Assembly (NCBI GenBank): GCA_043765155.1
Contig: JAYUJP010000043.1
Span: forward strand, 1 to 47,482
Source of the DNA: a bacterium
GTDB lineage: Bacteria > Patescibacteriota > Minisyncoccia > Phycocordibacterales > UBA5272
Direction of reading: 5' to 3'
Length of the DNA stretch: 47,482 nucleotides
The notes below the pieces were generated by a model, which searched no databases, had not been told where the DNA came from, and saw only the letters and a program-made list of their open reading frames with translations. Of this stretch, positions 5,476 to 47,331 are shown piece by piece. Each line of letters opens with the position of its first letter. Positions within the stretch are counted from its first letter, which is position 1. A program made the position numbers and the translations under genes.

Positions 5476-6407
5476 TGCTCTCACGTTCGTTGACAATTCA
5501 ATCATAAGCAAAGACAATTTATCTCTATGATAATATTATTTATAATTTTATTTTTAGTAGGGGTCTTTTCGGTCTTTAGCTTATATATCACAAAATCCTA
5601 GTTGCTAATGTATAGCAGCTAGGTAGCTCAAATTAAATAAGAAAGAAATAATTTATGAAAGTAAATCATGTTAATTTTGTTTAAGATGAGAAATCACAAA
5701 AATAATAAGATAATAATTAAATTTTTAATTTAAAATTATCAATGAACTTGTAGCAAAGCATGTCTGTATACGAAAGTGTGCAGACAAAAACATGTGAGAG
5801 TAAATTTAAAAGTTATAATGATAATAAATGTCGCAAGATATTTATAGAAGTAATAACTAATATGTTTACAATTATATGTATAAAAATAGTGGAATGTAGC
5901 ATATACATTTCCTAATAGGAAAAATAAGAGCATGGGGTGGATACCTTGGCTCAAGGAAGCGATGAAGGACGTAGTCAGGCTGCGATAAGCCTCGGGTTGA
6001 TGCCTAACAATCTTACCCGGGGATCTCCGAATGAGGAAACTCTACTAGAGTAATGTCTAGTAACCTAAGGCAGCAGTGCCTAGGAGCATACCCACTGAAG
6101 TGAAACATCTCAGTAAGTGGAGGAAAAGAAACTAAATAAGTATTACGCAAGTAGCGGCGAGCGAAAACGTAGAAGCCCAAACCGACATGCTTGCATGTAC
6201 GGGGTTGTAGGGTAGAGACGTAGAATTATCTAGATTAGTCATAAAATATATTGATAGAAGAATAACCTGGAAAGGTTAGCCATAGAGGGTGATAGCCCCG
6301 TAGTCGAAATCTTTATATCTAATTTGTCTCTATTCCTGAGTATCTCAAGACACGAATAGCTTGGGAGAATCTGCCGGAACTAACCGGTAAGGCTAAATAT
6401 TCCTTGA

Positions 6408-6453
<46 letters not shown>

Positions 6454-7762
6454 GGAAAGGGAGTGAAATAGATTTGAATCCCCATGTTTACAAAGAGTAG
6501 AAGAGGACTTGATCCTCGACTGCGTGCCTATTGAAGAATGAGCGAGCGAGTTAATATATACAGCTGGTTAAGTGGAAGAAAGCCACGGAGCCAAAAGCGA
6601 AAGCGAGTGTGAATAGCGCGAAATAATAGTTGTATGTATTAGACCCGAAGCCAGATGAGCTACCCATGGGCAGGTTGAAGTCTGTCGAAAGATAGATGGA
6701 GGACCGAACCGGTAGGTTGTACGACTCCTTCGGATGACCTGTGGGTTGGAGTGAAAAGCTAATCGAATCTGGTAATAGCTGGTTCTCTCCGAAATAGTTT
6801 TTGGACTAGCGTCATGCGCTGATGTGTGGAGGTAAAGCACTGGAAGGTTTTGACTAGTAGAAATACGGCAACGCCTATCAAACTCTGAATGCCACACAGT
6901 GAAGCATGGCAGTAAGTCTGCGGGGGCGAAGCTCCGTGGACAAGAGGGAAAGAGCCCTGATCGCAAGTTAAGGTCCCAAAGTGTATGCTAAGTGTACTTG
7001 AGGATGTGGAGTTTCATTGACAATGAGGATGTTGGCTTAGAAGCAGCCACCATTGAAAGAAAGAGTAACATCTCACTCATCGAGAGATTCTGCGCCGTAA
7101 ATAATCGGGACTAAAGCATACCACCGAAACTGCGGGCTGTAGCATTTTTGCACAGCGGTAGGAGAGTGTTCCACTCTGCGTTGAAGGTAAAGGGGTGACC
7201 CATACTGGAGCGTGTGGAAGTACGAATGCTTGCACAAGTAACCGCAAGGAAGGTGAGAGCCCTTCCCGCCGAAAGACTAAGGATTCCCACGCAACGTTGA
7301 TCGACGTGGGGTTAGTCGGGCCTAAGGAGATGGCTAACGCCGGATCCGATGGACATAGGGTTAATATTCCCTAACTTGGTAAAATTGTGATGGACTGACG
7401 CATTGTTGTAATTCATGCCCCTTATTGGATTGGGGTAGGGTAGCTGATTGTGTATCGCAGGCAAATCCGCGATATAAATGAGAGGCTAAGCTTGAAGGGT
7501 GTAGCAATACACTTGAAAATGGGTGAGCACGGTGCCAAGAAAAGGTTCTACATTCTGTGAATACAGAACATGACTATTAGTCTATATGAGCGTAAGCTTA
7601 TCCGGATTAATAGTTGTGCGTTAATTTTTTATCAATCCGTACCGTAAACCGACACAGGTAGTCAGGTCGAGTAGACCAAGGCGAACGAGTGATTTCTCCC
7701 CAAGGAACTAGGCAAAAAAGCGGCCGTAAGTTAGCGATAAGGCCTCCCTCCATCACTTTGTC

Positions 7763-8199
7763 TTTAAATATATCGTAAGATATTTTTAAAATAAAGTGCA
7801 TGTGAAGGTTCTAGAGAATTGAAAGTCTGTTTAATTACAGCATTATTATATGTGACGGCAATCCATATAATAAGAGACAAATATGTATGTGTATATAATC
7901 ACATACACACAGATTCTCTGAATCTCTGTCATGCATATGTTTAAGTTAGTTTTATGTGTTTAGTGGAGATTATATTCAGCAACTAAAGGAGATCGTAATG
8001 ATGTATCGAGGTGCATGTAATCCCGATTTTTATCGGGGAGTGAAATTCAGTCGAGTAGAAATGACTGTAGGAAATATTGGCGCCACTATAATTTCTTGCA
8101 TTTATTTACTCGTATTTCTTTCCATGGTATTCTGAAGGTCAATCTTTCAAACCCAAGAGACATCTTGGGGTCTCTACTAAACACATAAGACAATTTGAA
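7763..8199 (+). ncRNA. About 437-nt structured insertion at the apex of 23S helix 63 (expansion segment, IVS or intron; unclassified)
   Basis: Flanked by ccctccatcactttgtc (7746-7762) and gataaagtgatggaggg (8200-8216), which pair and align to E. coli helix 63. Internal long-range helix 7952-7969/8171-8188, a GUAA-capped hairpin at about 7768-7790, and several other hairpins. No credible ORF. Confidence 0.7.
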
Positions 8200-8367
8200 G
8201 ATAAAGTGATGGAGGGCGCAGCGAAAGTGTCCCTGCCGACTGTTTATCAAAAACACAGCTCTGTGCGAACTCGTAAGAGGATGTATACAGGGTGACGCCT
8301 GACCAATGCGGGAAGGTCAAATAATGGTGGTGCGATTATATCAAGCTGGCCGTTATAAGCCCCCGTC

Positions 8368-8415
<48 letters not shown>

Positions 8416-9064
8416 TGGTAAGTTCAGACGTGCACGAATGGCGTAACGAGTGGGGAACTGTCTCGGGGAGTAGCTCGGTGAAAATACATTGGGGGTGAAG
8501 ATGCCCCCTACCTGCAGATAGACGAAAAGACCCCGTGAGCTTTACTCTAGCTTGATATTGCGTTTGTTACTTTGTTGCGTAGAATAGTGGTCAGGGGTTT
8601 GATGTTGTGGGTTTTGGCTCACATCTACCCGACAGTGAAATAGCCATCTTCAAAGTGGCAAGCGCTAACGTGTCCGGAAAAAACGGACGCAGACAGTATC
8701 TGGTGGGGAGTTTAACTGGGGCGGTTCCCTCCTAAAAAGTAACGGAGGGGTTCATTAAGTTCAGCTAGGCGCGAATGGAAACCGTGCCGATAGTGTAAGG
8801 GCATAAGCTGGATTCACTGCAAGACGGACATGTCGAGCAGACAGGAAACTGGGACCTAGTGAACCGACAACACGCATTAGATGCGGTTGAAGATTAACGG
8901 ATAGAAGCTACCACGGGGATAACAGGCTAGTTTTGCCCAAGAGTTCATATCGACGGCAAAGTTCGGCACCTCGATGTCGGCTCATCTTATCCTGGTGGTG
9001 GAGAAGCTACCAAGGGTATGGCTGTTCGCCATTTAAAAAGATACGTGAGCTGGGTTCAAACCGT

Positions 9065-9492
9065 AGAGAATTGTATCAGATAGAATTGATAAGCTATACT
9101 AATATTTACATAGTGATGTGTAATTTTATAAAAATATATATCTCATATATTTTTATAAATAATAATTAGTAATGCTATCAGATGTGTTTTATCTAATAGA
9201 ATTCTCTAAGTTTGAACCCGAGGGTTAAGACTTAACTTAACAAAAAAGACATTGATCACGGCGGTTATGTACAGTGATGTATATAAACAAGCTGACTAAT
9301 ATCGGAAAAATCTTGTAAATTTTTTATACAAGACAATTCCGAGGGAATAATATAATTCCAAAATTATATTTGCCCGTAGAGACTACACGTCAGCGTTCTC
9401 GTAAGAGAATATGCTATAGTCCGATTCCTCTGGTGACAGAGGTTGATAATTATTGAAACCAAGATTATCATTTAAAACACAACCTTCACATG
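9065..9492 (+). ncRNA. Group I intron at the 23S L2593 site, ORF-less
   Basis: The exons rejoin to aaaccgt|cgtgagacag (E. coli GAACGU|CGUGAGACAG). The 5' exon ends in U and the intron ends in G (9492). Guide sequence cacg-gcggtt (9257-9266) pairs with the 3' exon cgtg (P10) and the 5' exon aaccgt with a U-G wobble (P1). P3 is gctgac 9291-9296 / gtcagc 9389-9394. P7 is gacta 9381-9385 / tagtc 9417-9421. P8 is gttctc-GUAA-gagaat. P9 is cctctg-GUGA-cagagg. The core resembles the Tetrahymena AGACUA...AUAUAGUC core. Confidence 0.85.
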
Positions 9493-9993
9493 CGTGAGAC
9501 AGGTTGGTTTCCTATCTTCTGCAGGCGTTCGATTGTTGAGAGGACTTGCCCCTAGTACGAGAGGACCGGGGTGAACTGACCTCTGGTGTATCGGCTCTAC
9601 CGCCAGGTGGATCGCCGAGTAGCTATGTCGGGACTAGATAACTTCTGAAAGCATCTAAGAAGGAAGCTACCCTCAAGATTAACAATCGTTGAAGCGTCCT
9701 AAGAGATTATTAGGTTGATAGGAGCTAGATGTAAGCGCAGTAATGCGTTTAGTCGAGGCTTACTAATTACGCGAAATTCCTATTAGGAAATGTGTATACT
9801 ACAAAATAACATTATTTTGTTTTGTTACAAGTTCGTATTAAGTTTGTGAAAAATAAAAGAGTTGAAACACTCTATAAAAATTTTGTGATATAAAGATTGA
9901 ATTAAAATTAACGAACCAAAATATCTTATATTAGATATTATTGTAAATTAAACTTAAAAACTTAATTTATAATATATTTAGAATTTGAATATT

Positions 9994-10110
9994 CTGTTCT
10001 CCTGATTTGCTTGTGGGGTAATACCTTTTCCCATTCCGAACAGAGTCGTCAAGCCCACAATGAGCGATGATAGTGGATTTATCCGCAAAAGTAGTTTTTC
10101 GGGAGAACAG
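9994..10110 (+). rRNA. rrf: 5S rRNA
   Basis: ctgttctcc...ggagaacag terminal helix, and the conserved cccattccgaacagag...gtcaagcc motif. Confidence 0.9.
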
Positions 10111-32780: not shown

Positions 32781-33296
32781 ATGAATACAAAAAACCTTAT
32801 TATGGGTATAGATCCAGGCTATGACAGAGTGGGGATTTGTATTTTGGAAAATGAAAAGGGAAAAGATACTCTGTTATATTCGAACTGTATTATCACAGAT
32901 AAAAAGTTAGCTGATTATGAGCGTGTAAAAGTCGTATGTGACGAGATAGAAAAAGTCATACAAAAATATAGCACAGAAGATAACAGAATATCCTGTGTTG
33001 GCATAGAAACTCTTTTTGTGTTTAAAAATCAAAAGACAGTGATGGGTGTGAGCGAAGCGCGTGGTGCTATCAAGTATATTTTAAATAAAAATAATATAAA
33101 AATAATAGAGCTAACTCCTATGCAGGTTAAAAGTAGTGTCTGCGGTAGCGGTCACTCACACAAAGATCAGGTGGACTATATGGTTAGAAATATTTTAAAA
33201 ATAGATATTACCAAAAAAATTATCGATGACGAGATAGATGCTATGGCTATCGCCCTTACAGCTAGCCTATTCGACAAGAATCAAAATATTTTATAA
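32781..33296 (+). CDS. ruvC: Crossover junction endodeoxyribonuclease RuvC
   Basis: IMGIDPGYDRVG (catalytic Asp), and a C-terminal DDEIDAMAIAL motif. Confidence 0.85.
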   Translation: MNTKNLIMGIDPGYDRVGICILENEKGKDTLLYSNCIITDKKLADYERVKVVCDEIEKVIQKYSTEDNRISCVGIETLFVFKNQKTVMGVSEARGAIKYILNKNNIKIIELTPMQVKSSVCGSGHSHKDQVDYMVRNILKIDITKKIIDDEIDAMAIALTASLFDKNQNIL

Positions 33297-36087: not shown

Positions 36088-37798
36088 GAAAAATAACGTA
36101 GAAATATCACCAGAAGATATATTTTTAGATTCTCGTAATCTTTCGGGTCTGGCTACAGAAAATGCCGCTGCATCTTTTAAAAAGCCTGTATTAAAAGATT
36201 CGCTTCTTTTCTCCTTGTCTTTTCTTATTATAATGTTTTCTGTTTTTACCTATAAGGCATACACACTGCAGATACGAGACACAGAATCTTGGTTGGCAAA
36301 AGCGGAGAGTAATTACACAAACAAGTCCCCGATATTTGCTTATAGAGGTATGATAAAAGATAGAAATGGTGTGCCCTTAGCCTGGAATGACTCGCTTGAC
36401 TCTAAGCTTGAGGCCAAGACCTTGGCTATACCTAAAAGGCATTATATAGAGAGTGAAGGGTTCTCAAATCTTCTTGGCTTTGTCAATTATCCTAAAAAAG
36501 ATAAGAGCGGCATATTTTGGCGTGACGATTATGTCGGTATAGACGGCTTAGAAAAATATTACAATACTAAGCTCTCGGGTGAAAAAGGTGAGAGGGTAGT
36601 AGAGCTAAACGTAAAAGGTGAAATAGTAAAAGATAATACTCTTAATGCAGCAAAAGAGGGCGAGGTATTAGAATTGAATATAGATACTAAGGCACAGAGT
36701 ATATTTTATAATAGGCTAAAAGAAGTGGTCGATGCCCAAGGATTTACCGGAGGGTCAGGAGTGTTAATGGACGTTAATAGCGGTGAGGTGATAGTAGCCG
36801 CTTCTTATCCTGATTATAATAATAATATTTTTGTAAATGCTAGTGGTACGGCCGAGCAAGATATAAAAGAAAATTACCTAAAAGATAAAAAGACCCCAAT
36901 GCTAAATAGAGCCATTAGCGGCTTGTATACTCCAGGCTCGGTAGTCAAGCCTTTTATGGCGTATGCTGCCCTAAATGAAGGAGTTATAGATCAATTTAAA
37001 AGTATATTAAGTACCGGTAAGCTTATAATCAAAAATAGATATGACGGACCAGATACTATATTTCGTGACTGGAAAGCTCATGGATATGTTGATGCCAGAG
37101 AGGCCATAGCAGTATCAAGCGACGAATACTTTTATCAAGTTGGCGGTGGCTATAAAGATCAGCCAGGGCTAGGTATAAAAAGGATAGATAATTATATGAG
37201 TATGTTTGGATTTGCGAGCTCGACAGGAGTTGACTTTGTCTCAGAAAAAGATGGGATAATACCAACCCCAGAATGGAAAAAGAAAAATTTTCAAGAGGGT
37301 GATTGGCTACTCGGTAATACTTATCACTCTTCTATTGGTCAATACGGATTTAAAACTAGTCCCCTAGGACTAGCTAGATCTATTGCTGCTGTTGCTAATG
37401 GTGGTATATTAGTCACCCCTAAAATAGCAAAAGTAAAAGGAGATAGTGAATTTATAAAAAAAGATATAAACCTTAATCTTGATAAAAAGTACCTAGAGAT
37501 TATCCAAGAGGGTATGAACAAGGCAGCTAGCACAGTCGGTACCGCTCATTACTTTGAGGACTTGCCTTTTGAGGTAGCTGCTAAGACAGGTACAGCTCAG
37601 CTTGGATTTAAAAATGAAAAGGTTAATAGCTGGTCTACAGGTTATTATCCTTATAATAACCCCGGCACATCACCCAAATATGTATTTGTTTTTATGATAG
37701 AAAATGGTCCCAGCACTAATACTGTAGGCGCTTCAAAGATAATGAGAAAAGTCTTTCAGGATATGATTGATGCTGATATGGCATATATTAAATTCTGA
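36062..37798 (+). CDS. mrdA: Penicillin-binding protein 2 (class B transpeptidase)
   Basis: SVVKP (SxxK) and KTGTA (KTG) motifs, an N-terminal TM anchor, and operon context with mreBC. Confidence 0.88.
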   Translation: MSFLKISGKKNNVEISPEDIFLDSRNLSGLATENAAASFKKPVLKDSLLFSLSFLIIMFSVFTYKAYTLQIRDTESWLAKAESNYTNKSPIFAYRGMIKDRNGVPLAWNDSLDSKLEAKTLAIPKRHYIESEGFSNLLGFVNYPKKDKSGIFWRDDYVGIDGLEKYYNTKLSGEKGERVVELNVKGEIVKDNTLNAAKEGEVLELNIDTKAQSIFYNRLKEVVDAQGFTGGSGVLMDVNSGEVIVAASYPDYNNNIFVNASGTAEQDIKENYLKDKKTPMLNRAISGLYTPGSVVKPFMAYAALNEGVIDQFKSILSTGKLIIKNRYDGPDTIFRDWKAHGYVDAREAIAVSSDEYFYQVGGGYKDQPGLGIKRIDNYMSMFGFASSTGVDFVSEKDGIIPTPEWKKKNFQEGDWLLGNTYHSSIGQYGFKTSPLGLARSIAAVANGGILVTPKIAKVKGDSEFIKKDINLNLDKKYLEIIQEGMNKAASTVGTAHYFEDLPFEVAAKTGTAQLGFKNEKVNSWSTGYYPYNNPGTSPKYVFVFMIENGPSTNTVGASKIMRKVFQDMIDADMAYIKF

Positions 37799-37847
37799 GT
37801 TAAGTTTTAGGCTGTATATCAGTTTAATTTTATTTTTAGGCTTTTTG

Positions 37848-37856
37848 TGGTATACT
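37848..37856 (+). promoter_or_regulatory. Extended -10 element TGgTATACT
   Basis: Read directly, 47 nt before the greA ATG. Confidence 0.4.
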
Positions 37857-37903
37857 ACAGTTAATAAATTACACGTTAAAAATAAATAACCCAAAATAAA
37901 TAT

Positions 37904-38368
37904 ATGGCAAAAGAATACATCACATTAGAAAAAAAAGCAGAATTAGAAAATGAGCTAGCCGAGCTAAAAGGATCAAAAAGAAAAGAGATTGCAGCAGCTC
38001 TAGAGTATGCAAAGTCTCTTGGTGACCTATCTGAGAATGCTGAGTATAGTCAGGCCCGTGAAGATCAGGCTCATTTAGAAGACCGTATCGCCGAGATAGA
38101 GTATATACTTAAGCATGCTGAGATAGCCGAAAAGCATCATGCTGGACGCGTTGAGGTGGGAGCGACTGTACATGTGGTTAAAAAGGGTGACAGCAAAGCT
38201 AGAGTATTTACAATAGTAGGTAGCGAGGAAGCTGATGTTGAGGGTGGTAAAATATCAAATGAGTCACCTCTTGGAGTTGCTCTTATGGGTAAAGTAAAAG
38301 GTGATACAGTATCTTTTGACACACCTAACAAGACAGTTGCTGAGTATATGATCAAGAATGTAGAGTAA
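37904..38368 (+). CDS. greA: Transcription elongation factor GreA
   Basis: GDLSENAEYSQAREDQ acidic-tip motif in the coiled-coil, and a C-terminal ISNESPLGVALMGKVKGD motif. Confidence 0.92.
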   Translation: MAKEYITLEKKAELENELAELKGSKRKEIAAALEYAKSLGDLSENAEYSQAREDQAHLEDRIAEIEYILKHAEIAEKHHAGRVEVGATVHVVKKGDSKARVFTIVGSEEADVEGGKISNESPLGVALMGKVKGDTVSFDTPNKTVAEYMIKNVE

Positions 38369-38379
38369 TAGCTACTAAC

Positions 38380-39027
38380 ATGTTAGACAGTATATTAAAT
38401 AAAATATTTTCTCATGCGACCATAATTTTAGAAAAAGACTCTTTTAATCTTGATTCTGATTATAATAAATTAAAATTAGAATTATCTAAAGCTGGTATAA
38501 ATTATATTTGTTTTGATACCAATCCAAAAGCAACAGATTCTGATAGTAGAAGCTTAAATTTCAAAATAGATGACTTGCAAAAGATAAGAGATTTTCAAAG
38601 TTCAAAATCTAACCAAAAGAGATTTATAATTACAGATAGGAGTCTACGCAATACAGTAATACAAAATGCACTTTTAAAAATATTTGAAGAGCCAACAGAA
38701 AATACCTTTATTATTATTTTTACAAAAGATATAAGCATGCTATTGCCTACTATATTATCTAGATGTCAGCTCATAAAAGATTTAGAAAAAAGTTCAGGGA
38801 AAAATAATATAAATAACAGTGATAAAAATACTACAAAAGAAGAAGCTCCAAATCAAAAAATAAAAGAAAAAATAATAAATACTAAATCTATAAATGCTGC
38901 AAATAGCGAGGGAGATAAATCTGAAAATAGATTTGAAAAATTAGAGAGATTTCTGATTATAGAAAATCTAAACGAGAGGGGGCTAGTAAGTCAAAAGCAA
39001 TTTGAGGAGTACAAAAATTTGGTCTAG
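38380..39027 (+). CDS. holB: DNA polymerase III delta'-like clamp-loader subunit (no Walker A visible)
   Basis: NALLKIFEEPTENTFIIIFT and LPTILSRCQ (sensor/SRC) motifs. The N-terminus lacks a P-loop, and the C-terminal tail is K/N-rich. Confidence 0.6.
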   Translation: MLDSILNKIFSHATIILEKDSFNLDSDYNKLKLELSKAGINYICFDTNPKATDSDSRSLNFKIDDLQKIRDFQSSKSNQKRFIITDRSLRNTVIQNALLKIFEEPTENTFIIIFTKDISMLLPTILSRCQLIKDLEKSSGKNNINNSDKNTTKEEAPNQKIKEKIINTKSINAANSEGDKSENRFEKLERFLIIENLNERGLVSQKQFEEYKNLV

Positions 39028-39044
39028 AAATTTTCTTAAAAATG

Positions 39045-39053
39045 TGCTATTAT
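39045..39053 (+). promoter_or_regulatory. Extended -10 element TGcTATTAT upstream of the tRNA pair
   Basis: Read directly. Confidence 0.35.
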
Positions 39054-39134
39054 ATGTGTTAGTTCTGAAGGTAAATTCTTTTGGAAAGATCTTAATTTCT
39101 CTAAAGTAAAAGCTTAAGAAAATATACAAAAAGC

Positions 39135-39217
39135 GCCCGGGTGGCGGAATGGTAGACGCAAGAGACTTAAAATCTCTCGAAGATTACTTCGTGCGGGTTC
39201 GAGTCCCGCCCCGGGCA
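39135..39217 (+). tRNA. tRNA-Leu(TAA), CCA not encoded
   Basis: Cloverleaf folded by hand: acceptor gcccggg/cccgggc, anticodon loop ctTAAaa, long variable arm cgaag-atta-cttcg, T arm gcggg-ttcgagt-cccgc. Confidence 0.9.
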
Positions 39218-39257
39218 CAAGCAAAATTAGTCGATAGAGCAGGCCAGTCCTGCAAAT

Positions 39258-39330
39258 GCCCTTATAGCTCAGTTGGTAGAGCAACTCCCTCTTAAGGAGA
39301 TGGTCGTAGGTTCGAATCCTACTGAGGGCA
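39258..39330 (+). tRNA. tRNA-Lys(CTT), CCA not encoded
   Basis: Cloverleaf folded by hand: acceptor gccctta/tgagggc, D arm gctc-agttggta-gagc, anticodon loop ctCTTaa, T arm gtagg-ttcgaat-cctac. Confidence 0.9.
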
Positions 39331-39392
39331 CAATTTTAGAATAAAATTTAACAATGTAAAAAATTATTTTTACCTTATATTTAACTTTCTTT

Positions 39393-39509
39393 TTACTCCA
39401 TATGCACCTCTTCAAAAGTTGAGAGTTTGGTTTTTAACTCTGGGAAATTATCGAGATAAAGGTCATTGCTTATTATCTGCGTCGCATACTTTTTGGTAGC
39501 CTCGACAAG
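39393..39509 (-). pseudogene. Orphan copy of the recG 3' end (last 38 codons plus stop)
   Basis: 111 of 117 nt are identical to 43988-44104. It translates on the minus strand to LVEATKKYATQIISNDLYLDNFPELKTKLSTFEEVHME-stop. No upstream recG body is attached. Confidence 0.85.
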
Positions 39510-39598
39510 AAATATTATTTTTGGCTGACTTGTAATATTTTTATTTTTAGTGTAATATTATAGGCGGACTTATTTTTGCACTTTTTAAAGGAAACGAA

Positions 39599-40729
39599 AT
39601 GATACATGACTTAAACGATCTGCTTAATAAAGTAGATGAACCATATAAATCAGCTTTTTTTAACCATAGGGATACAGCCCTCAGCAGCTATGCGACAGTT
39701 GGTGAAAATGGTGCGCATAGAGAGGCAATATTGGGTACATTAGATTTGTACCCATCCAGAGCCCTTTGCCTAACTAGGCCAAATGACATCATACAACTTT
39801 CTCCAAAACTAGAGAAGTTGTGGAGTTTTATTCAGAGTCACTACAGAAGAGTTGGACTAAAGGTGACACAAGATGTAATCTGGTCTGATAACCTAGATGA
39901 ATACAAAGCCTCAATATATTCCCGCTATGACTTTTCTGGCTTCATGGGAACAGAAGAACTGTTAGAAGCTTATGGTCTTCGACATATTCAAGTGGCAAGT
40001 ACTCTTAACTCAAAAACTAAGTTTATGGAGCTATGTGTTGAATTAGGTATAAGCACTCCAGAAACCTTCTGGTCTAGAGATTACTTATCTAAGAAAGATA
40101 ACTTTCCTGTTTCTGGGTATTTTAAAGCAGACGAGTCAGTTTCCGGACTAGGAGTATTGAAGTATGACTCACCAGAGGAATTAGATGATCTTGTAAAAGC
40201 TTATCGCAGTAGCAGCTGGCAAGTCCAACGAGATGTAATGCCTGTTAAGTTTCTAAATCTGCAATACACGCTAGATGATTTTTCTTGGAAAGCTCTAGCT
40301 ATGACTGAACAGATTCTTAATGGTAATTCTCATGTTGGAAATCAGTTTCCTTCTAGCGTAAGTATTGAGACTAGAGACTACGGAAATATCCTTGACCATG
40401 CACAAAAGTTTGGCTTTAGGGGGGTTTTAGGCTTAGATGTTTTAGTGGACGCAGAAGGTAAAAGTTATGTTTTGGAGTGTAACCCAAGACTTAACGGAAG
40501 CACTTATCCTACCGTAACCGCTAAAAGATTAGGCGTAGTCAAATGGTTAGCCATATCGGTACACTCTTCTTTTAGAGATATTTCAGAAATACTAGAGCGT
40601 CATTCTTTTGATGGCAACAAGGGCGTAGTTGTGTTTAATTGGGGGGCTTTATTGTCAGATAAAGCTGGCATAATGATTGCTGGCGATGATAATTACCAGA
40701 AAGAGATAATGTCTTTATTTACGAGTTAG
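39599..40729 (+). CDS. ATP-grasp fold ligase with an uncharacterised N-terminal domain of about 130 aa
   Basis: C-terminal GLDVLVDAEGKSYVLECNPRLNGSTYP is the ATP-grasp Mg/ATP-binding signature. An SD aagga is present upstream. Confidence 0.65.
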   Translation: MIHDLNDLLNKVDEPYKSAFFNHRDTALSSYATVGENGAHREAILGTLDLYPSRALCLTRPNDIIQLSPKLEKLWSFIQSHYRRVGLKVTQDVIWSDNLDEYKASIYSRYDFSGFMGTEELLEAYGLRHIQVASTLNSKTKFMELCVELGISTPETFWSRDYLSKKDNFPVSGYFKADESVSGLGVLKYDSPEELDDLVKAYRSSSWQVQRDVMPVKFLNLQYTLDDFSWKALAMTEQILNGNSHVGNQFPSSVSIETRDYGNILDHAQKFGFRGVLGLDVLVDAEGKSYVLECNPRLNGSTYPTVTAKRLGVVKWLAISVHSSFRDISEILERHSFDGNKGVVVFNWGALLSDKAGIMIAGDDNYQKEIMSLFTS

Positions 40730-40756
40730 TACTGGAGTCTGTATGATAACCTTAAA

Positions 40757-40787
40757 AGAGAAGTGTTTTGCGCTTCTCTTTTTTTAT
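40757..40787 (+). terminator. Rho-independent terminator inside the cassette
   Basis: agagaagtg-ttttg-cgcttctct followed by ttttttt. Confidence 0.75.
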
Positions 40788-40807
40788 TGTATAATATATT
40801 CACATAT

Positions 40808-41740
40808 ATGAAAAATTATACTTTAATTATCCATGGTGGAGCCGGTCTTGTTTTTAATCATGATAAGTATAAAGACTCTATGCAAAAAGTTTTAGATGTT
40901 GGAGACTCTATGCTATCTCAAGGTCAAAGCTCTTTGGATGTTGTTGAGTGTTGTGTTCGCATGCTCGAAGATGACCCTCTTTATAATGCAGGTTATGGCT
41001 CAGTTCTAACCAGTGAAGGTAATGTAGAGATGGATGCAGCTATTATGGACGGGGCTAATCTCTCTAATGGTGCAGTAGCTGCTATTACAAACGTGAGACA
41101 CCCTATCAGTGTAGCAAGAGCGGTAATGGAAAAAACAAATCATGTTTTTCTGGTTGCAAAAGGTGCTCAGGATTTTATTAATACTTTGGATAACATTGAA
41201 AAATGTAATCAAGATGATCTTATAATAGATTACAGAAGAGAGCAGTTAAAAGAAGCTGTTGCAAAAAATGAAGTTAGACTAGATCACTCTAGTCTAGATT
41301 CAAAAGAAAGAAAATTTAGTACTGTCGGTGCTGTAGCTTTAGATACGTCAGGTAACCTGGCCGCTGCAACTTCTACAGGGGGTATAGTTAATAAAAAGTT
41401 TGGCAGAGTCGGAGATACTCCAATAATAGGGGCTGGCACTATAGCGGATAATAACTCATGCGCTGTATCTTGTACAGGATTCGGAGAGCAATTTATAAAA
41501 ATATCTGTCGCAAAAAGAGTCGCTGACTACATAGAGCTACTTGGTATGAACGCTCAATCTGCCGCTAATAAAGTTAGAGATGAACTGGTGCAGAAAGTTG
41601 GAGGTTTAGGAGGTTTTATAGTTATAGACAAAAATGGGAATATCGGAGTGTCACATTCTAGTCCTTGTATTTTATTTGCAACTAGTAAAAATGGAATCAA
41701 AAATATTGGGGTAAATAGTCAAGACTTGTTAAAAGTTTAA
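40808..41740 (+). CDS. Ntn-hydrolase isoaspartyl peptidase / plant-type L-asparaginase
   Basis: IIHGGAG, DPLYNAGYGSVL, DAAIMDG, the autoprocessing site S-TVGAVALD, and GRVGDTPIIGAG. Start set at ATG 40808, because the listed GTG 40763 lies inside the upstream terminator. Confidence 0.85.
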   Translation: MKNYTLIIHGGAGLVFNHDKYKDSMQKVLDVGDSMLSQGQSSLDVVECCVRMLEDDPLYNAGYGSVLTSEGNVEMDAAIMDGANLSNGAVAAITNVRHPISVARAVMEKTNHVFLVAKGAQDFINTLDNIEKCNQDDLIIDYRREQLKEAVAKNEVRLDHSSLDSKERKFSTVGAVALDTSGNLAAATSTGGIVNKKFGRVGDTPIIGAGTIADNNSCAVSCTGFGEQFIKISVAKRVADYIELLGMNAQSAANKVRDELVQKVGGLGGFIVIDKNGNIGVSHSSPCILFATSKNGIKNIGVNSQDLLKV

Positions 41741-41785
41741 ATTTAGTGTAAAATTGGAAAGGATCATTTTTTACAAAGGAAATAT

Positions 41786-43015
41786 ATGAAAACATTAGAA
41801 ATGCTAAAAAGTAGAGGCCTTGTTCATCAGATTACTGATGAAAAAAGCTTATCAGCTGCTTTTGATCAGGGTCCTGTAACTTTTTACATAGGCTTTGACC
41901 CAACAGCAGATTCTCTGCATGTCGGTAGTTTAAAAGGTATCATGGTGGCTGCACACTTACAACGCATGGGACATGTCCCTGTAATGTTGGTTGGTGGCGG
42001 TACTGGATTAATCGGTGACCCTAGCGGCAAATCAAAAGATCGGAATATATTATCTTCGGAGATTTTGAAGCATAACGAGTCTTGCATAGGTTTGCAGCTT
42101 CAAAAATTTGTTAACACAAATAATCCTGAAGGCTTTTTCTTAAATAATGCAGACTGGTTAAAAAGTTTGAATTATTTAGAATTTCTAAGAGATGTTGGAG
42201 TTTATTTTAGAGTTAACGAAATGGTTAAGAACGACACCTACAGGCTTAAGCTTGATTCTGGTGAAGGTTTATCTTTTGTTGAGTTTAACTATCAGCTCTT
42301 ACAGGCTTATGATTTCAAATATCTTTTTGAAAAATATAATTGTTCTTTACAAATAGGGGGCAGTGATCAGTGGGGAAATATAACCGCAGGTACAGATCTT
42401 GTACGCAGGTCAAATGGCGCAAATGTTTTTGGCTTAACCATACCACTGGCTCAGACTTCAGATGGTAAAAAAATGGGTAAGACGGAAAGCGGCGCTGTTT
42501 GGTTAGATGCAAACAAGACCACGCCTTATGACTTTTATCAGTTTTGGATCAACTGTACAGACGAGGATGTGTTTAACTTTTTAAAAGTTTATACATTTAT
42601 GTCTGTTTCAGATATCGACTCTTTGCCAAGAGTTAGTCATGTTGATCTAAAAAAAGCTAAGGAAACCCTTGCTTATATAGTCACAGAAATCGTTCATGGA
42701 GATAAACTTGCCGATGAAGCAAAAGCAAAATCAAATAGTTTATTTTCTGAAGATGGGGACAAACATGATCTGGCTATACAAGTTGGGGTATCGCGCTCTG
42801 ATGCTGAGTCAAAGACAATTGTTTCTGTTTTGTCAGAAGCAGATTCGTCTGTAAGTAAATCAGAGCTACGTAGGCTTATTACCAGTAATGCAGTAAAAGC
42901 AGACGGGTTAGTCTTGAAAAGTGATGTCTCGCTAGACGAACTTTTTCCCTCAGGTCAAGATAAGATTTTGATTACTGTAGGCAAAAAAAAGTTTTTTTCT
43001 GTTAAGTTAATTTAA
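41786..43015 (+). CDS. tyrS: Tyrosyl-tRNA synthetase (bacterial type with a C-terminal S4-like domain)
   Basis: GFDPTADSLHVGSL (HIGH region), LVGGGTGLIGDPSGK, QAYDF, GGSDQWGNI, and KMGKT (KMSKS region). Confidence 0.92.
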   Translation: MKTLEMLKSRGLVHQITDEKSLSAAFDQGPVTFYIGFDPTADSLHVGSLKGIMVAAHLQRMGHVPVMLVGGGTGLIGDPSGKSKDRNILSSEILKHNESCIGLQLQKFVNTNNPEGFFLNNADWLKSLNYLEFLRDVGVYFRVNEMVKNDTYRLKLDSGEGLSFVEFNYQLLQAYDFKYLFEKYNCSLQIGGSDQWGNITAGTDLVRRSNGANVFGLTIPLAQTSDGKKMGKTESGAVWLDANKTTPYDFYQFWINCTDEDVFNFLKVYTFMSVSDIDSLPRVSHVDLKKAKETLAYIVTEIVHGDKLADEAKAKSNSLFSEDGDKHDLAIQVGVSRSDAESKTIVSVLSEADSSVSKSELRRLITSNAVKADGLVLKSDVSLDELFPSGQDKILITVGKKKFFSVKLI

Positions 43016-43033
43016 AGAAAGTGATGGTGTAAA

Positions 43034-43924
43034 ATGGCTAAAAAAATTATTGCCTATTTAGGGCCAGAAGGAGCTTCTTTTGGTTATCAGGCAGCGGTAA
43101 AGTATTTAGCGATTACCAGTAAACAGAGAGAGTATGCTGCAGTCTCATATAAATCCCATGAAGGAATTTGTGAAGCTGTTGCCCTGGGTAATGTCAGTCT
43201 TGGTGTAGTAGCTATTGAGAATACTGTGGCCGGATTTGTCGAAGAGACACTAGCCTCACTTGCTCATTGGCAGACACTAGAGTCCATAAAAGCGATACAG
43301 GAAGTGTCTCTTGTTGTGGATATACGAGCATACTCAAAAGATGGTAAGATGCCAGCTGATCTAAAGAGAATATTTTCTCATGGTGTTGGCATAACTCAAT
43401 GCTCAAGGTATGTTGAATTGATGCGCTCCAAGTATCCAGAAATGGTTGCTGAGGCTGTTGCTTCAACTGGTGATGCCGCAAAGAGGGCTTCAGAAGTAGC
43501 TGGTTCAATAGCTTTGACTGGTTCAGTTGCTGCAAAAAAGTATAACTTATTTGCAGCAGAGCCAGATCTAAAAACTGATTCAAATAGCCACACAAGATTT
43601 TTCATAGTGTCAAAATCGTCAGATAAGATCGATCCTGAAAAAGTTGATTTTGCAGAATACAAAACTATGATGTGTTTTGAGATGACATTGGCGCAATCTG
43701 GCTGTTTACAAAAAACCCTGAGCTTTTTTTCTAGTCAGGATATAAATATGAGGGTTGTTCATGAAATAAGAACACCTAACCGTTTATGGGAGTATCGTTT
43801 TCTTGTAGAATTTGAATGTCATGTTCATCAAGATTCTTTCAGGAGAGCTTTAGGAAATTTCAACAAAAGTGGCATATCTATGGCACCACCAATAATTTAC
43901 GGCTCCTATTTAAAAGGGATTTAA
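43034..43924 (+). CDS. pheA: Prephenate dehydratase with a C-terminal ACT domain
   Basis: IAYLGPEGASFGYQAA, ENTVAGFV, NSHTRFFIV, and an ACT region EIRTPNRLWEYRFLVEFECH (ESRP-type motif). Confidence 0.85.
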   Translation: MAKKIIAYLGPEGASFGYQAAVKYLAITSKQREYAAVSYKSHEGICEAVALGNVSLGVVAIENTVAGFVEETLASLAHWQTLESIKAIQEVSLVVDIRAYSKDGKMPADLKRIFSHGVGITQCSRYVELMRSKYPEMVAEAVASTGDAAKRASEVAGSIALTGSVAAKKYNLFAAEPDLKTDSNSHTRFFIVSKSSDKIDPEKVDFAEYKTMMCFEMTLAQSGCLQKTLSFFSSQDINMRVVHEIRTPNRLWEYRFLVEFECHVHQDSFRRALGNFNKSGISMAPPIIYGSYLKGI

Positions 43925-43930
43925 TTATTT

Positions 43931-43960
43931 ACAGCAGGTATTAGTACCTGCTGTTTTTAT
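43931..43960 (+). terminator. Rho-independent terminator
   Basis: acagcaggta-ttag-tacctgctgt followed by tttt. Confidence 0.85.
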
Positions 43961-43987
43961 TTTATAGGTAGAAGATTTTATGACTCC

Positions 43988-46240
43988 CTACTCCATATGC
44001 ACCTCTTCAAAGGTTGCGAGTTTGGTTTTTAACTCTGGGAAATTGTCAAGATAAAGGTCATTGCTTATCATCTGCGTCGCATACTTTTTGGTAGCCTCGA
44101 CAAGCTTCAGATTCTGCAGTGCCTGCATACCTAGGTCGCTCATACCCGACTGATTACGTGAGAGCAGTGATCCGATGCCGCGCGTGTTCATGTCTAGCTC
44201 AGCAAGCTCAAATCCGTTTATGGTGGAGCAGAAATTCTTGAGCCTGCCTACACTCACCTCATTAACACTATCTGAAAATAGTATACAGCGGCTCGCATGT
44301 TCTCCGCGCCCAATACGTCCGCGCAGCTGATGTAGCTGAGACATACCGAACCTATCAGCATTTTCTATTATCATGATTGTCGCATTAGGCACGTTAACGC
44401 CTACCTCGACGAGGCTAGTCGCTATTAAGATTTGTATTTTGTTATCCTTGAACTCGCTCATTATCTCCTCCTTGTCTTCGTTTTTAATCTTACTATGTAG
44501 GCCGGCTATATTAACATGGGACTTGTTATTTTTGACTAGATACTTTTCTATACTTTCGACTTCGCTTTCTACTGATCTACGTTCTTTTTTTTCAGGACCA
44601 GAATCTTCTGAAAAACTTTTACTTTTGTTCTCTTCTTTTTCTGCGTCCACTCCTATCTTTGTACAGACTATATATATCTGCCTACCGTTTTCTATTTCAT
44701 TTATCATGTCATCATAAACTTTTTCCCTATCTTTTTCATATTTGAAAAATGTCTTTATCTCTTTTCTTCCTTTTGGCAGCTCATCTATTATTGATAAGTC
44801 TAGGTCGCCAAATATAGAGAGGGCGAGTGTTCTAGGTATTGGTGTTGCTGTCATTGAGAGTAAGTGAGGTATCTCCATTCTTGTATCTCCTTTTTTGTGG
44901 GCCAAGTCTTTACGGGTATTAATACCAAATCTATGCTGCTCGTCTATAATTACGAGCGAGAGGTCCTTGAACTCGACGCGCTTCTTGGTGACGGCGTGCG
45001 TCCCCACCAGTAATGACACCTCACCGCTAGCGACCCACTTTATAAGCTGAGGCTTACTCACACTAGTGTATGAGTCAGGATTAGCTTTGGATGGGAACTT
45101 GAGAGCCTGCTTACCGGATAGATAGCCTACGCTAATACCAGTATGAGCGAGTAATTGTATCAATGTCTCATATTGCTGCAATGCTAATATCTCGGTAGGC
45201 GCAAGGTATACAGCCTGCAGAGGGGTGCCAGCTTTTTTATTGTCTCTCTTACTCTTGATAACTGCGTATATGAGGGCAGCAGCGACAAGAGTCTTACCTG
45301 ACCCCACATCACCTTCGAGCAGTCTTTGCATCGGCCTACCACTTTTTAGGTCTATGAGCATATCACTCAAAACTTTCTTCTGTGCACCTGTTGGAGTGAT
45401 ATTATGCAAAGAGAAAAATTCATCTATATAGGGTTCATTTATAATATACGCCAGTGACCCCTTGGCTAAAAATTTCTCTTGGACTATTTTGAGCTGCACA
45501 TAGAACATCTCCTCAAAAAGAAATCTTTTTTTGGCGGCCTGCGCTAACTTTTCGTCAGTAGGGAAATGTGTATATAACACAGCGTCCCTGATATCAGGTA
45601 GATGTAATTCGTCTTTTATATATTTTGGTACGGGATCCACTAATCCCTTTTTAAAATAGTCGCTACTTATGATCTTTCTTATACTCTCATATATAAACTT
45701 ACTACTTATATTTTTGGTCTCATTGTAGACTGGGGTTAGCTTACCGTATTTTTCAGTTAGCTTATCATTTTCTTCTGAGCTGATTAGATTCTTTTTAGAA
45801 AAAAGTGAGTCACCAGCCTCGGGTATACTGTTAATCTTTTCAATATTAGGATTACTAATAGTCAGTCCGCCTGGCTTTTGCTCAGGCTTACCGCTTATCA
45901 TAACTAGACTATTTTCAGGATACATTTTGCCTATGTAGGGCTGATTAAACCAAAACAACTTGAGCTCCTTTTGCCCGTCACTAAAAGTCGCCTCAGTCAT
46001 ATTTATTTTACTTTTCCAAGCTTTTTTGACTGTCACCTTTTTCATAGTACCGTACAGCGTCACTAGCTCGCCGGGGACTATATTTTCTATACTACTATTA
46101 TCGCCGTACCTAATATATCTTACCGGCTGATAACGCAGCAGGTCATCAACATTCAAAATCCCAAGCCTGTATAGCGCCTCTTTTTGCAGCGGAGTTATAC
46201 GCTTATAAGTCTCAATGTTTCTAGCTATATTCTTTTCCAT
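43988..46240 (-). CDS. recG: ATP-dependent DNA helicase RecG
   Basis: Wedge-domain N-terminus and helicase motifs GDVGSGKT, DEQHRFG, LSMTATPIPRTL, QLHQLRGRIGRG. It also contains a K/E/S-rich insertion. Confidence 0.92.
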   Translation of the reverse strand: MEKNIARNIETYKRITPLQKEALYRLGILNVDDLLRYQPVRYIRYGDNSSIENIVPGELVTLYGTMKKVTVKKAWKSKINMTEATFSDGQKELKLFWFNQPYIGKMYPENSLVMISGKPEQKPGGLTISNPNIEKINSIPEAGDSLFSKKNLISSEENDKLTEKYGKLTPVYNETKNISSKFIYESIRKIISSDYFKKGLVDPVPKYIKDELHLPDIRDAVLYTHFPTDEKLAQAAKKRFLFEEMFYVQLKIVQEKFLAKGSLAYIINEPYIDEFFSLHNITPTGAQKKVLSDMLIDLKSGRPMQRLLEGDVGSGKTLVAAALIYAVIKSKRDNKKAGTPLQAVYLAPTEILALQQYETLIQLLAHTGISVGYLSGKQALKFPSKANPDSYTSVSKPQLIKWVASGEVSLLVGTHAVTKKRVEFKDLSLVIIDEQHRFGINTRKDLAHKKGDTRMEIPHLLSMTATPIPRTLALSIFGDLDLSIIDELPKGRKEIKTFFKYEKDREKVYDDMINEIENGRQIYIVCTKIGVDAEKEENKSKSFSEDSGPEKKERRSVESEVESIEKYLVKNNKSHVNIAGLHSKIKNEDKEEIMSEFKDNKIQILIATSLVEVGVNVPNATIMIIENADRFGMSQLHQLRGRIGRGEHASRCILFSDSVNEVSVGRLKNFCSTINGFELAELDMNTRGIGSLLSRNQSGMSDLGMQALQNLKLVEATKKYATQMISNDLYLDNFPELKTKLATFEEVHME

Positions 46241-46268
46241 ATTTTCTCAGTTTTTATTTTAAATGTAT

Positions 46269-46297
46269 TTGACATAATATTTTTCTTTTGATATACT
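46269..46297 (+). promoter_or_regulatory. Promoter TTGACA-17-TATACT on the plus strand, in a gap between two minus-strand genes
   Basis: TTGACA at 46269-46274 and TATACT at 46292-46297. Confidence 0.55.
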
Positions 46298-46303
46298 ATA
46301 TTT

Positions 46304-46388
46304 AGTGTTTGGGGAGTTCGCTCCCTCACGGCTACAAGCTGTAACCAAGCACTAATAAAGTATCTGTCTATTTTTAGACAGATTTTTT
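46304..46388 (+). ncRNA. Candidate ~85-nt small RNA
   Basis: It follows the promoter above. Closing stem agtgtttgg (46304-46312) / ccaagcact (46345-46353), a UUCG-capped hairpin ggag-ttcg-ctcc, and the terminator atctgtcta-tttt-tagacagat plus a T run. No plus-strand ORF lies downstream. Confidence 0.45.
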
Positions 46389-46390
46389 AT

Positions 46391-46852
46391 TTACTCATCT
46401 ACAAGATTAGTATCGTGTAATTTTCTCTCAGAATTATTTTTATTTTTACCCCAATACGGTATCACGCTCCAGAAAAAAGGAGAAGAATCCTGCACTTTTT
46501 TTATAATAACTTTAATTCTTTTGTCGGCTACAACAGCAAAGAATTCATAATAAGTTATTTTTACTAGTTTCGTATCTGTCCTACTATGTATTCTTATTTT
46601 TTCAAATCCTTGAGTTTCTTGTATACCTTGCAGTGTATGAGATCTGCTAACTATATCACTTACAAGATGTAAATTTTTGAATCTAGAAATTTGATCCTTT
46701 TTGTTTCTTGCTATACGCTCCCTTTTAAATTTAAGATGGTCTAAACCTCTAGAGTTAAAGAGTATATCTTGTTTTAAGAAAGGGCAATATACAGTATCAA
46801 TTTCTTTATACTTTAATTCTGCCTCGTCTTTTATTTTATCAAAATTATCCAT
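46391..46852 (-). CDS. Hypothetical protein (153 aa)
   Basis: ORF with a coding-like composition and no motif I can name. Confidence 0.5.
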   Translation of the reverse strand: MDNFDKIKDEAELKYKEIDTVYCPFLKQDILFNSRGLDHLKFKRERIARNKKDQISRFKNLHLVSDIVSRSHTLQGIQETQGFEKIRIHSRTDTKLVKITYYEFFAVVADKRIKVIIKKVQDSSPFFWSVIPYWGKNKNNSERKLHDTNLVDE

Positions 46853-46867
46853 GTAAATATTTCTTTT

Positions 46868-47242
46868 TTAATAGCCTCTACCTCTACCATATATAATTAG
46901 GAGGGCGATATTGATTAGTATTGATACTATTATGAGCACAGTAGAGGGGCCGTACTTGTTCATGTCAAAGTTAAGATAGACCTCGATCAGTAATACAAAT
47001 AGGGATATAGACAAGAATAATACAGGGCGCGGCCAAAACAATATGAGCGCAGCCAATAGTATAAATGATCCATGCCACAAGTTATAACTAGCTACAGCTG
47101 GTAAGAACTCACTAGTGCAGGCAAATATCTTACCCCCAGTCATCACACCTTTTAATCCAGACAGTAGAGCAGGCAAATGATTAAAAACAAAATACATAGA
47201 GAGAGCAAGACGTAGTATATATGGCCAGGCAGAAGTTATCAT
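46868..47242 (-). CDS. Small integral membrane protein (about 4 TM)
   Basis: 124 aa, hydrophobic throughout. Confidence 0.55.
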   Translation of the reverse strand: MITSAWPYILRLALSMYFVFNHLPALLSGLKGVMTGGKIFACTSEFLPAVASYNLWHGSFILLAALILFWPRPVLFLSISLFVLLIEVYLNFDMNKYGPSTVLIIVSILINIALLIIYGRGRGY

Positions 47243-47331
47243 AGATTTATTTTAGATTTTTAAATTATATTATTAATATCTTTATATCATAATTATAACA
47301 TATTATGTATTATATTTTGTGTTATTTTACC

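Follow-up and report, generated by a model that had tools for sequence, protein, structure and literature searches.

How does a gene come to have two 3' ends? This question is raised by a 47,482-nt stretch of DNA, contig JAYUJP010000043.1 of assembly GCA_043765155.1 (referred to here as the window, meaning the whole stretch that was analysed), in which the last 117 nt of recG are present twice, as direct repeats at 39393-39509 and 43988-44104 that bracket four closely packed plus-strand genes beside a pair of tRNA genes. Its RecG relatives place the organism among the Saccharibacteria-like bacteria of the Candidate Phyla Radiation (CPR). The arrangement is a recent, well-resolved insertion footprint in a Saccharibacteria-like genome and as such a known type of event, for which the uninterrupted site, the occupied site and both recG alleles can be compared base by base.

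The duplicated recG end and its empty site

The two copies agree at 111 of 117 nt in an ungapped pairwise alignment (BLAST E about 1e-50), are spaced 4,595 nt apart and constitute the sole long dispersed repeat that a repeat search returned for the 47.5-kb window. On one side their similarity has a sharp edge, at 39509/39510 and 44104/44105, respectively, and on the other it ends exactly at the stop codon. A first-pass annotation had taken the right copy for the true end of recG and the left one for an orphan, with abrupt edges to the homology, and both alignment and repeat search bear this out; its distance of 63 nt between tRNA-Lys and the orphan has to be corrected to 61 nt, since ARAGORN ends the tRNA at 39331. 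The features surrounding and forming the repeats are the following.

39135-39218, plus strand: tRNA-Leu(TAA), called by ARAGORN and Rfam; resident left flank, also present in contigs L104, L105 and L109
39258-39331, plus strand: tRNA-Lys(CTT), called by ARAGORN and Rfam; the gap that varies between sister strains is bounded on the left by its 3' end
39332-39392: resident spacer of 61 nt, from tRNA-Lys to the original recG stop, identical in L104
39393-39509, minus strand: orphan recG 3' end, the resident allele, with 38 intact sense codons and TAA
43988-46240, minus strand: recG, 750 aa (Pfam RecG_wedge, DEAD and Helicase_C)
43988-44104, minus strand: functional recG 3' end (right copy), the imported allele, comprising the last 38 codons and a TAG stop
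39475-39509 (left copy) and 44070-44104 (right copy): 35-nt block identical in both repeats, the probable crossover zone

The six differences between the copies are of the nature described at first sight, namely three synonymous changes (ctt/ctc, gac/gat and acc/act), two replacements (M/I and A/S) and the stop codon (TAG/TAA). All allele differences fall in repeat positions 1-82, while positions 83-117 are identical. Translation of the orphan can be ruled out, as it has no upstream start codon and its frame holds no open reading frame (ORF) of at least 20 aa.

The history of the two copies can be read from contig L104, which stems from another sample (ERZ27314379) and was found by listing the members of the RecG 90% cluster. 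Its RecG differs by one residue, M to I, at a site where the repeat copies also differ. The gene order of L104 is a 124-aa ORF, a 153-aa ORF, recG, 61 nt, tRNA-Lys, tRNA-Leu, holB, greA and PBP2, and the contig is colinear with window positions 37316-39509 (99.95% identity) and 43989-47278 (99.7%). As these two alignments overlap by one repeat unit, L104 corresponds to the window minus exactly 4,595 bp. Conversely, no recipient base is missing from the window relative to L104, and 117 nt are duplicated. A near-isogenic relative with tRNA-Lys followed directly by the recG stop, which the first-pass annotation had suggested looking for, thus exists, and together with the allele pattern described below it substantiates the earlier proposal that an insertion of about 4.5 kb supplied recG with a replacement end.

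At five of the six variable sites (repeat positions 1, 25, 58, 61 and 82) the only recG end of L104 has the base of the left copy, and at position 30 alone that of the right one. The right copy carries donor-type bases at 43988, 44012, 44045, 44048 and 44069, all of which differ from the single copy of L104, whereas from 44070 to 45958 (approximately 1.9 kb) the recG of the window is identical to that of the empty-site strain. Since its single end matches the left copy at five of six sites, L104 shows, on sequence grounds, the orphan to be the resident recG end and the functional right copy to be the imported allele. The remaining change, A at 39422 (Ala to Ser), is private to the orphan and the sole one at a first codon position. 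In contrast, all five donor/resident differences, which lie within the first 82 nt, are at third codon positions, which indicates that both copies were once working recG ends, as had been surmised from the pattern of the differences before the empty site was at hand. The exchange appears to have been resolved inside the 35-nt block, because repeat positions 83-117 and the 1.9 kb of recG beyond them match the resident sequence. Moreover, the orphan is contiguous with the resident spacer, and hence the empty configuration preceded the insertion; L104 itself could be the never-filled state or the result of a later deletion through the repeats.

Five synonymous single-nucleotide polymorphisms (SNPs) within 121 nt of recG (45959-46079) distinguish L104 from the window. 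A simple collapse of two copies into one during assembly of L104 was considered and ruled out, in view of these SNPs of its own and of the left-left-right-left-left-left pattern at the six sites, which is not that of a single jump between the copies. An earlier attempt to polarise the six differences with the outgroups L008, L009 and L012, made before L104 was found, gave an ambiguous result.

For the filled arrangement, an artefact of assembly can likewise be excluded. Two MEGAHIT assemblies of different samples (L001/L106 and L002/L107) agree base for base at both junctions, and the same RecG protein is found on contigs from several samples; ERZ27314326, ERZ27314321 and ERZ28573911 contain the filled state. 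In addition, contig L108, which derives from a different project and assembler, equals window positions 39431-46167 at 100% and spans the 39509/39510 joint together with all of the right junction; as its first base lies within the orphan, the boundary between spacer and orphan (39392/39393) falls outside its coverage.

The cargo and the variable tRNA-Lys/recG gap

Between the repeats lie four genes with intergenic gaps of 18-89 nt, preceded by a stretch that is AT-rich and followed by a spacer towards the convergent recG.

39510-39598, plus strand: left end of the imported DNA, missing from L104; AT-rich and situated upstream of the ATP-grasp gene
39599-40729, plus strand: cargo gene 1, ATP-grasp ligase-like protein of 376 aa (Pfam ATP-grasp_3; weak NCBIfam matches to amino-acid ligases)
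40763-41740, plus strand: cargo gene 2, Asparaginase_2 / beta-aspartyl (isoaspartyl) peptidase (Pfam E = 2.5e-100; NCBIfam beta-aspartyl-peptidase)
41786-43015, plus strand: cargo gene 3, canonical tyrosyl-tRNA synthetase (TyrRS) of 409 aa (TIGR00234 tyrS, 370 bits; Pfam tRNA-synt_1b)
43034-43924, plus strand: cargo gene 4, prephenate dehydratase-like protein (PDT) of 296 aa (Pfam PDT; NCBIfam PRK11898 below cut-off)
43931-43954, plus strand: terminator-like hairpin between the convergent PDT gene and recG, in a spacer shared with strain L008

The ATP-grasp protein is rare, with 18 relatives in a search of 5.8 billion proteins. In public gene calls the peptidase has 310 aa, which implies a start at 40808. 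A sigma-70 consensus scan returned no promoter call in 39510-39598, where the only promoter-like feature is the likeness of 39527-39559 to the stretch upstream of TyrRS at 41723-41755 (33 nt, 79% identical; GACTTGT..TTTAGTGTAAnATT). These two stretches precede the ATP-grasp gene and TyrRS, respectively, and the second overlaps a promoter-like call (41726-41754) and sits where homology to L008 begins (41761).

GC content, GC content at third codon positions (GC3) and codon usage of the cargo, whose comparison with the flanks had been proposed earlier, lie within the range of the other window genes and thus of the host; no foreign signal was found by these measures. This result argues against a distant donor and does not separate the mechanisms considered below. 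recG itself is a compositional outlier, with a GC3 of 0.43 versus 0.17-0.38 in the other window genes. As already stated in the first-pass annotation, no integrase or recombinase lies between the repeats; according to Pfam and NCBIfam, none of the four cargo genes encodes one, nor a transposase. This can be extended to 42 ORFs of the window by a Pfam scan, which covered every non-overlapping ORF of at least 120 aa except mreB and PBP2, for which precomputed Pfam calls exist, and which gave no integrase or transposase, only RuvC and RecG. A search around the insert and in L105 for short repeats, direct or inverted, and for tRNA-derived att-like repeats found none.

The content of the tRNA-Lys/recG gap differs from strain to strain, and the gap is therefore a variable hot spot in this lineage. 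Contig L105, which is about 90-93% identical to the window, contains holB, the tRNA genes, one unassigned gene of about 250 aa and recG with a single end, and no second copy of this end occurs anywhere in its filled gap. For the gene in this gap (L105 2921-3746), the gene table gives no Pfam family under a 316-aa call that over-runs the tRNA genes. In L109, holB and the tRNA genes precede an unrelated promoter and a gene for a membrane protein, and the 141 nt available after tRNA-Lys contain no copy of the recG end. The homology of both contigs to the window stops at 39332-39333, i.e. at the 3' end of tRNA-Lys. L008, which comes from the same sample as L109 and whose RecG is 98% identical at the amino acid and 93.5% at the nucleotide level, shares only window positions 41761-46304, comprising TyrRS, PDT and recG. 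In this contig, a SpoIIE-like gene upstream of TyrRS replaces the peptidase and ATP-grasp genes, and TyrRS-PDT stand directly beside recG, without an internal boundary and separated from it by the same spacer. Judging from this gene order, an arrangement as in L008, with PDT abutting recG, is a plausible representative of the expected donor type. In RecG relatives at 82-83% identity, recG is followed by other genes, namely CAP and PG-binding genes in one lineage and DUF6176 with its neighbours in a second, and in a relative at 68% by the histidyl-tRNA synthetase gene, ybeY and ftsAZ. Among the gap states seen, only that of the window has kept a duplicated recG end.

Synonymous divergence between the window and the L008/L109 strain amounts to 0.11 for TyrRS, 0.20 for PDT, 0.22 for holB, 0.24 for greA and 0.49 for recG, a mosaic that fits repeated recombination in the region. 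With its 0.49 against 0.11-0.24 in the neighbours, recG is a divergence outlier despite 98% protein identity to L008. SNPs between the window and the near-identical contig L107 are also clustered, with eight in 33 nt (33207-33239) and four in 85 nt (37045-37129). These clusters and the one at 45959-46079 look like short tracts from diverged strains and point to ongoing recombination. A second variable spot lies upstream of recG (window 46241-46852, L008 1-189, L009 637-1020). The 153-aa ORF at this position (46391-46852), which has no Pfam match, is present in the window and in L104 and absent in the 83% relatives, where a 124-aa membrane ORF abuts recG; L008 carries unrelated sequence upstream of recG.

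Outside this locus, the closest relatives of the ATP-grasp gene are found on other CPR-like contigs, where the four genes have the same order and stand at unrelated sites, i.e. after the tryptophanyl-tRNA synthetase gene in L015-L017 and after an aminotransferase gene in L018. The order of ATP-grasp, peptidase, TyrRS and PDT-like genes is conserved in three CPR-like lineages (window 39599-43924, L015 10001-14936 and L018 6816-11148), with an extra 172-aa ORF in the module of L015. Neither the 117-nt recG end (E 1e-3) nor RecG (E 1e-10) had a BLAST match on the contigs with cassette homologues, L015-L019. The pair of ATP-grasp and peptidase genes alone is widespread in (sulfur-oxidising) Gammaproteobacteria, and the two genes also neighbour each other in two cyanobacterial loci and in one further CPR genome, whereas TyrRS beside PDT was seen only in this CPR group; a scan of GTDB with a TyrRS profile returned only matches at 41-50% in other phyla, without PDT or ATP-grasp neighbours. 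The lineage is absent from the scanned GTDB genome and JGI metagenome collections: an exact pattern for the tRNA-Leu/tRNA-Lys pair had no match in GTDB genomes, and an exact 29-nt conserved recG block had none in JGI metagenomes or GTDB genomes. A RecG search of GTDB species representatives gave only representatives at 56% identity with a different context (recG, tRNA-Ile, FtsH), which are uninformative on the empty site.

Elsewhere in the window, a 23S rRNA match extends over 3,873 nt (5914-9786) compared to 2,925 nt in the model, which corresponds to about 950 nt of insertion(s), and is followed by 5S rRNA at 9997-10108. A 132-aa minus-strand ORF within the 23S match (6568-6966) has no Pfam match. 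16S rRNA was not found anywhere in the window, and 23S-5S is hence unlinked from 16S within the 5.9 kb upstream. In positions 1-231 a 21-nt unit (TGAGCTTAAATCAGACGTATC and variants) is repeated head to tail about 11 times, reported by the repeat search as 8 overlapping 84-nt copies at 21-nt spacing; this array probably encodes a 7-residue repeat of a protein cut by the window edge.

Possible routes of import

The first-pass annotation had left the mechanism open between integration at an attachment site and homologous import, and the evidence now favours homologous import from a related strain. At odds that we put slightly above even, a circularised sister-strain fragment integrated by one homologous (Campbell-type) crossover. 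The ancestor carried tRNA-Lys, the 61-nt spacer and the convergent recG, as in L104. To these, approximately 4.6 kb (39510 to about 44069-44104) were added, comprising the four-gene operon together with the last 117 nt of recG of a related strain about 6% diverged. The incoming recG end now terminates the gene, and the resident end has been displaced beside tRNA-Lys as a dead fragment. A strain with PDT beside recG, as in L008, would have supplied the incoming DNA as a circularised fragment, probably by natural transformation. One RecA-type crossover inside the 35-nt block identical in both alleles would then have integrated this fragment and in doing so duplicated the 117-nt homology. A site-specific recombinase would not be required for any of these steps, and the insert could be lost again through recombination of one repeat with the other.

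A crossover in the 35-nt block predicts the observed pattern, in which donor sites all lie within positions 1-82 and the rest is identical to the resident allele. Also in keeping with Campbell-type integration, a direct duplication brackets the insert, the site is single-copy and uninterrupted in the matching genome, and the two copies are reciprocal chimeras of resident and incoming sequence around one crossover point. Natural competence and the integration of DNA through homologous recombination are established for Saccharibacteria (PMC10633639). In a system built to detect homology-facilitated illegitimate recombination (HFIR), most products were re-circularised molecules integrated by a single crossover, which duplicates 109-950 bp of the homologous segment, while true HFIR consisted of insertion plus deletion (PMC3240628).

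While the import and the assignment of the alleles follow directly from the comparison with L104, we infer the circular intermediate, the uptake route and the dependence on RecA. Several points weigh against integration by a single crossover as outlined here. No donor genome was found, and both the circular intermediate and the way in which the ends were joined at 39509/39510 are presumed. With 117 nt at 95% identity and a perfect block of 35 nt, the homology is short for a RecA-mediated single crossover. The combination of an identical core, a sharp boundary and homology up to the exact stop is also the design of a gene-restoring phage-type attachment site (attP). Furthermore, L104 could represent a secondary deletion through the repeats instead of the never-filled ancestor, and, TyrRS being normally essential, the empty-site strain must carry a TyrRS elsewhere.

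Alternatively, linear transforming DNA could have entered by HFIR, with its right end crossed over in recG and its left end (39510) joined illegitimately 117 nt inside recG, the duplication being a matter of chance. We consider this unlikely, even though the lineage is expected to be competent, the 39509/39510 joint has no homology partner in the recipient, and all of the left copy is of the resident type and all of the right copy of the donor type. HFIR typically combines insertion with a deletion in the recipient, yet nothing is deleted here relative to L104, and duplications were attributed to circular single crossover in one experimental system (PMC3240628). The exchange would in addition have to be resolved in the 35-nt block right beside the illegitimate joint.

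Somewhat less probable again is a cassette without its own integrase, comparable to a cis-mobilizable element (CIME), in which the 35-nt block would be the att core, attP would carry the last 82 nt of recG, and a recombinase provided in trans from the genome or a helper element would drive integration and excision. The identical core at one end of the repeat, the abrupt boundary, the extension exactly to the stop and the intact recG would suit such an element, as would the neighbouring tRNA genes and the occurrence of filled and empty states in one near-clonal population, which is what reversible excision would lead one to expect. The 35-nt identical block and the intact recG indeed fit the form of left and right attachment sites (attL/attR), but a homologous crossover predicts the same picture. 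Neither the insert nor the 42 Pfam-scanned window ORFs revealed an integrase, and the boundary does not recur in other occupied sites: L105 and L109 have other gap content and no duplicate of the recG end within the sequence available. The cargo, moreover, is a conserved operon elsewhere in related CPR contigs, where no BLAST match to recG was obtained, and the imported end, which is approximately 6% diverged and at third positions only, has the character of an ordinary sister-strain allele. In a related scenario, to which we assign a still smaller chance, the four-gene module would be a cassette that moves without an integrase of its own, targets the 3' end of recG and cycles between an integrated form and an excised circle via the 35-nt core, by host recombination or a trans-acting recombinase. 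If true, such a cassette would move a functional aminoacyl-tRNA synthetase between Saccharibacteria strains, and the coexistence of filled and empty sites would reflect ongoing mobility, not a single past event.

A local rearrangement without import, either a tandem duplication of cargo and recG end followed by deletion or an old decayed duplication, is highly improbable. The cargo composition is indistinguishable from that of the host, and before L104 was available the left and right copies looked like mutual closest relatives. However, the flanks are 99.7-100% identical to L104, and yet the right copy is 5/82 nt off the resident allele, all at third positions; in-situ decay cannot give five changes in the functional copy so fast, and an exact empty site exists. 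Local duplication with subsequent decay was rejected on the basis of these five differences beside L104-identical flanks. That the left repeat of the filled contigs or the empty contig is chimeric is the least credible explanation, for although all data are short-read metagenome assemblies and L108 is broken off within the left repeat, at least three assemblies from two pipelines show an identical filled state, and L104 has variants of its own (C at repeat position 30 and five synonymous recG SNPs) and a six-site pattern that cannot come from one jump between copies.

Significance and comparison with known systems

With the empty site, the filled site and both alleles in hand, the locus represents a resolved natural case of an event that reveals no new kind of mechanism. 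It shows how an ultra-small CPR/Saccharibacteria genome gains a whole operon from a sister strain, apparently without mobile-element machinery, and a very short stretch of homology, 117 nt of which 35 nt form a perfect block, appears to have sufficed. An aminoacyl-tRNA synthetase, normally a fixed core gene, is among the exchangeable content of the gap. The convergent tRNA-Lys/recG gap tolerates insertions and would be a candidate neutral site for genetics in competent Saccharibacteria.

The closest likeness is to Campbell-type integration as known from suicide plasmids and re-circularised fragments, in which the insert is flanked by a direct duplication whose length of 109-950 bp includes the 117 nt found here (PMC3240628). 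Likewise, the two copies differ in type, resident versus incoming, on one side of the crossover, the insert lacks a recombinase gene, and the event is reversible. Unlike in these systems, the event at recG was a natural one in an uncultured CPR bacterium and involved sister-strain chromosomal DNA with a housekeeping-like operon, a very short homology and a presumed circular intermediate.

Genomic islands, integrative and conjugative elements, prophages and CIMEs can insert themselves at the 3' end of a gene, which they restore, leaving attL and attR behind. The recG locus shares with them the direct repeats of a gene 3' end, the intact target gene, the empty site in relatives and the adjacent tRNA genes. 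It differs in that no integrase was found in the insert or the scanned window ORFs, the cargo does not resemble that of mobile elements, recG was restored by an ordinary sister-strain allele, and other insertions in the gap come without the repeat within the sequence available.

With HFIR in natural transformation, the locus has in common a one-sided homology anchor in a core gene, extra DNA beside it and a competent lineage, whereas HFIR normally deletes recipient DNA, all of which is retained here, with 117 nt duplicated. Finally, population genomics knows flexible genomic islets between core genes that are exchanged by recombination in their flanks. The tRNA-Lys/recG gap resembles such an islet, as it is empty or holds one unassigned gene, a four-gene operon or other sets depending on the strain. 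Yet, double-crossover replacement leaves no duplicate, while the footprint described here reveals what was probably a one-crossover route into the gap.

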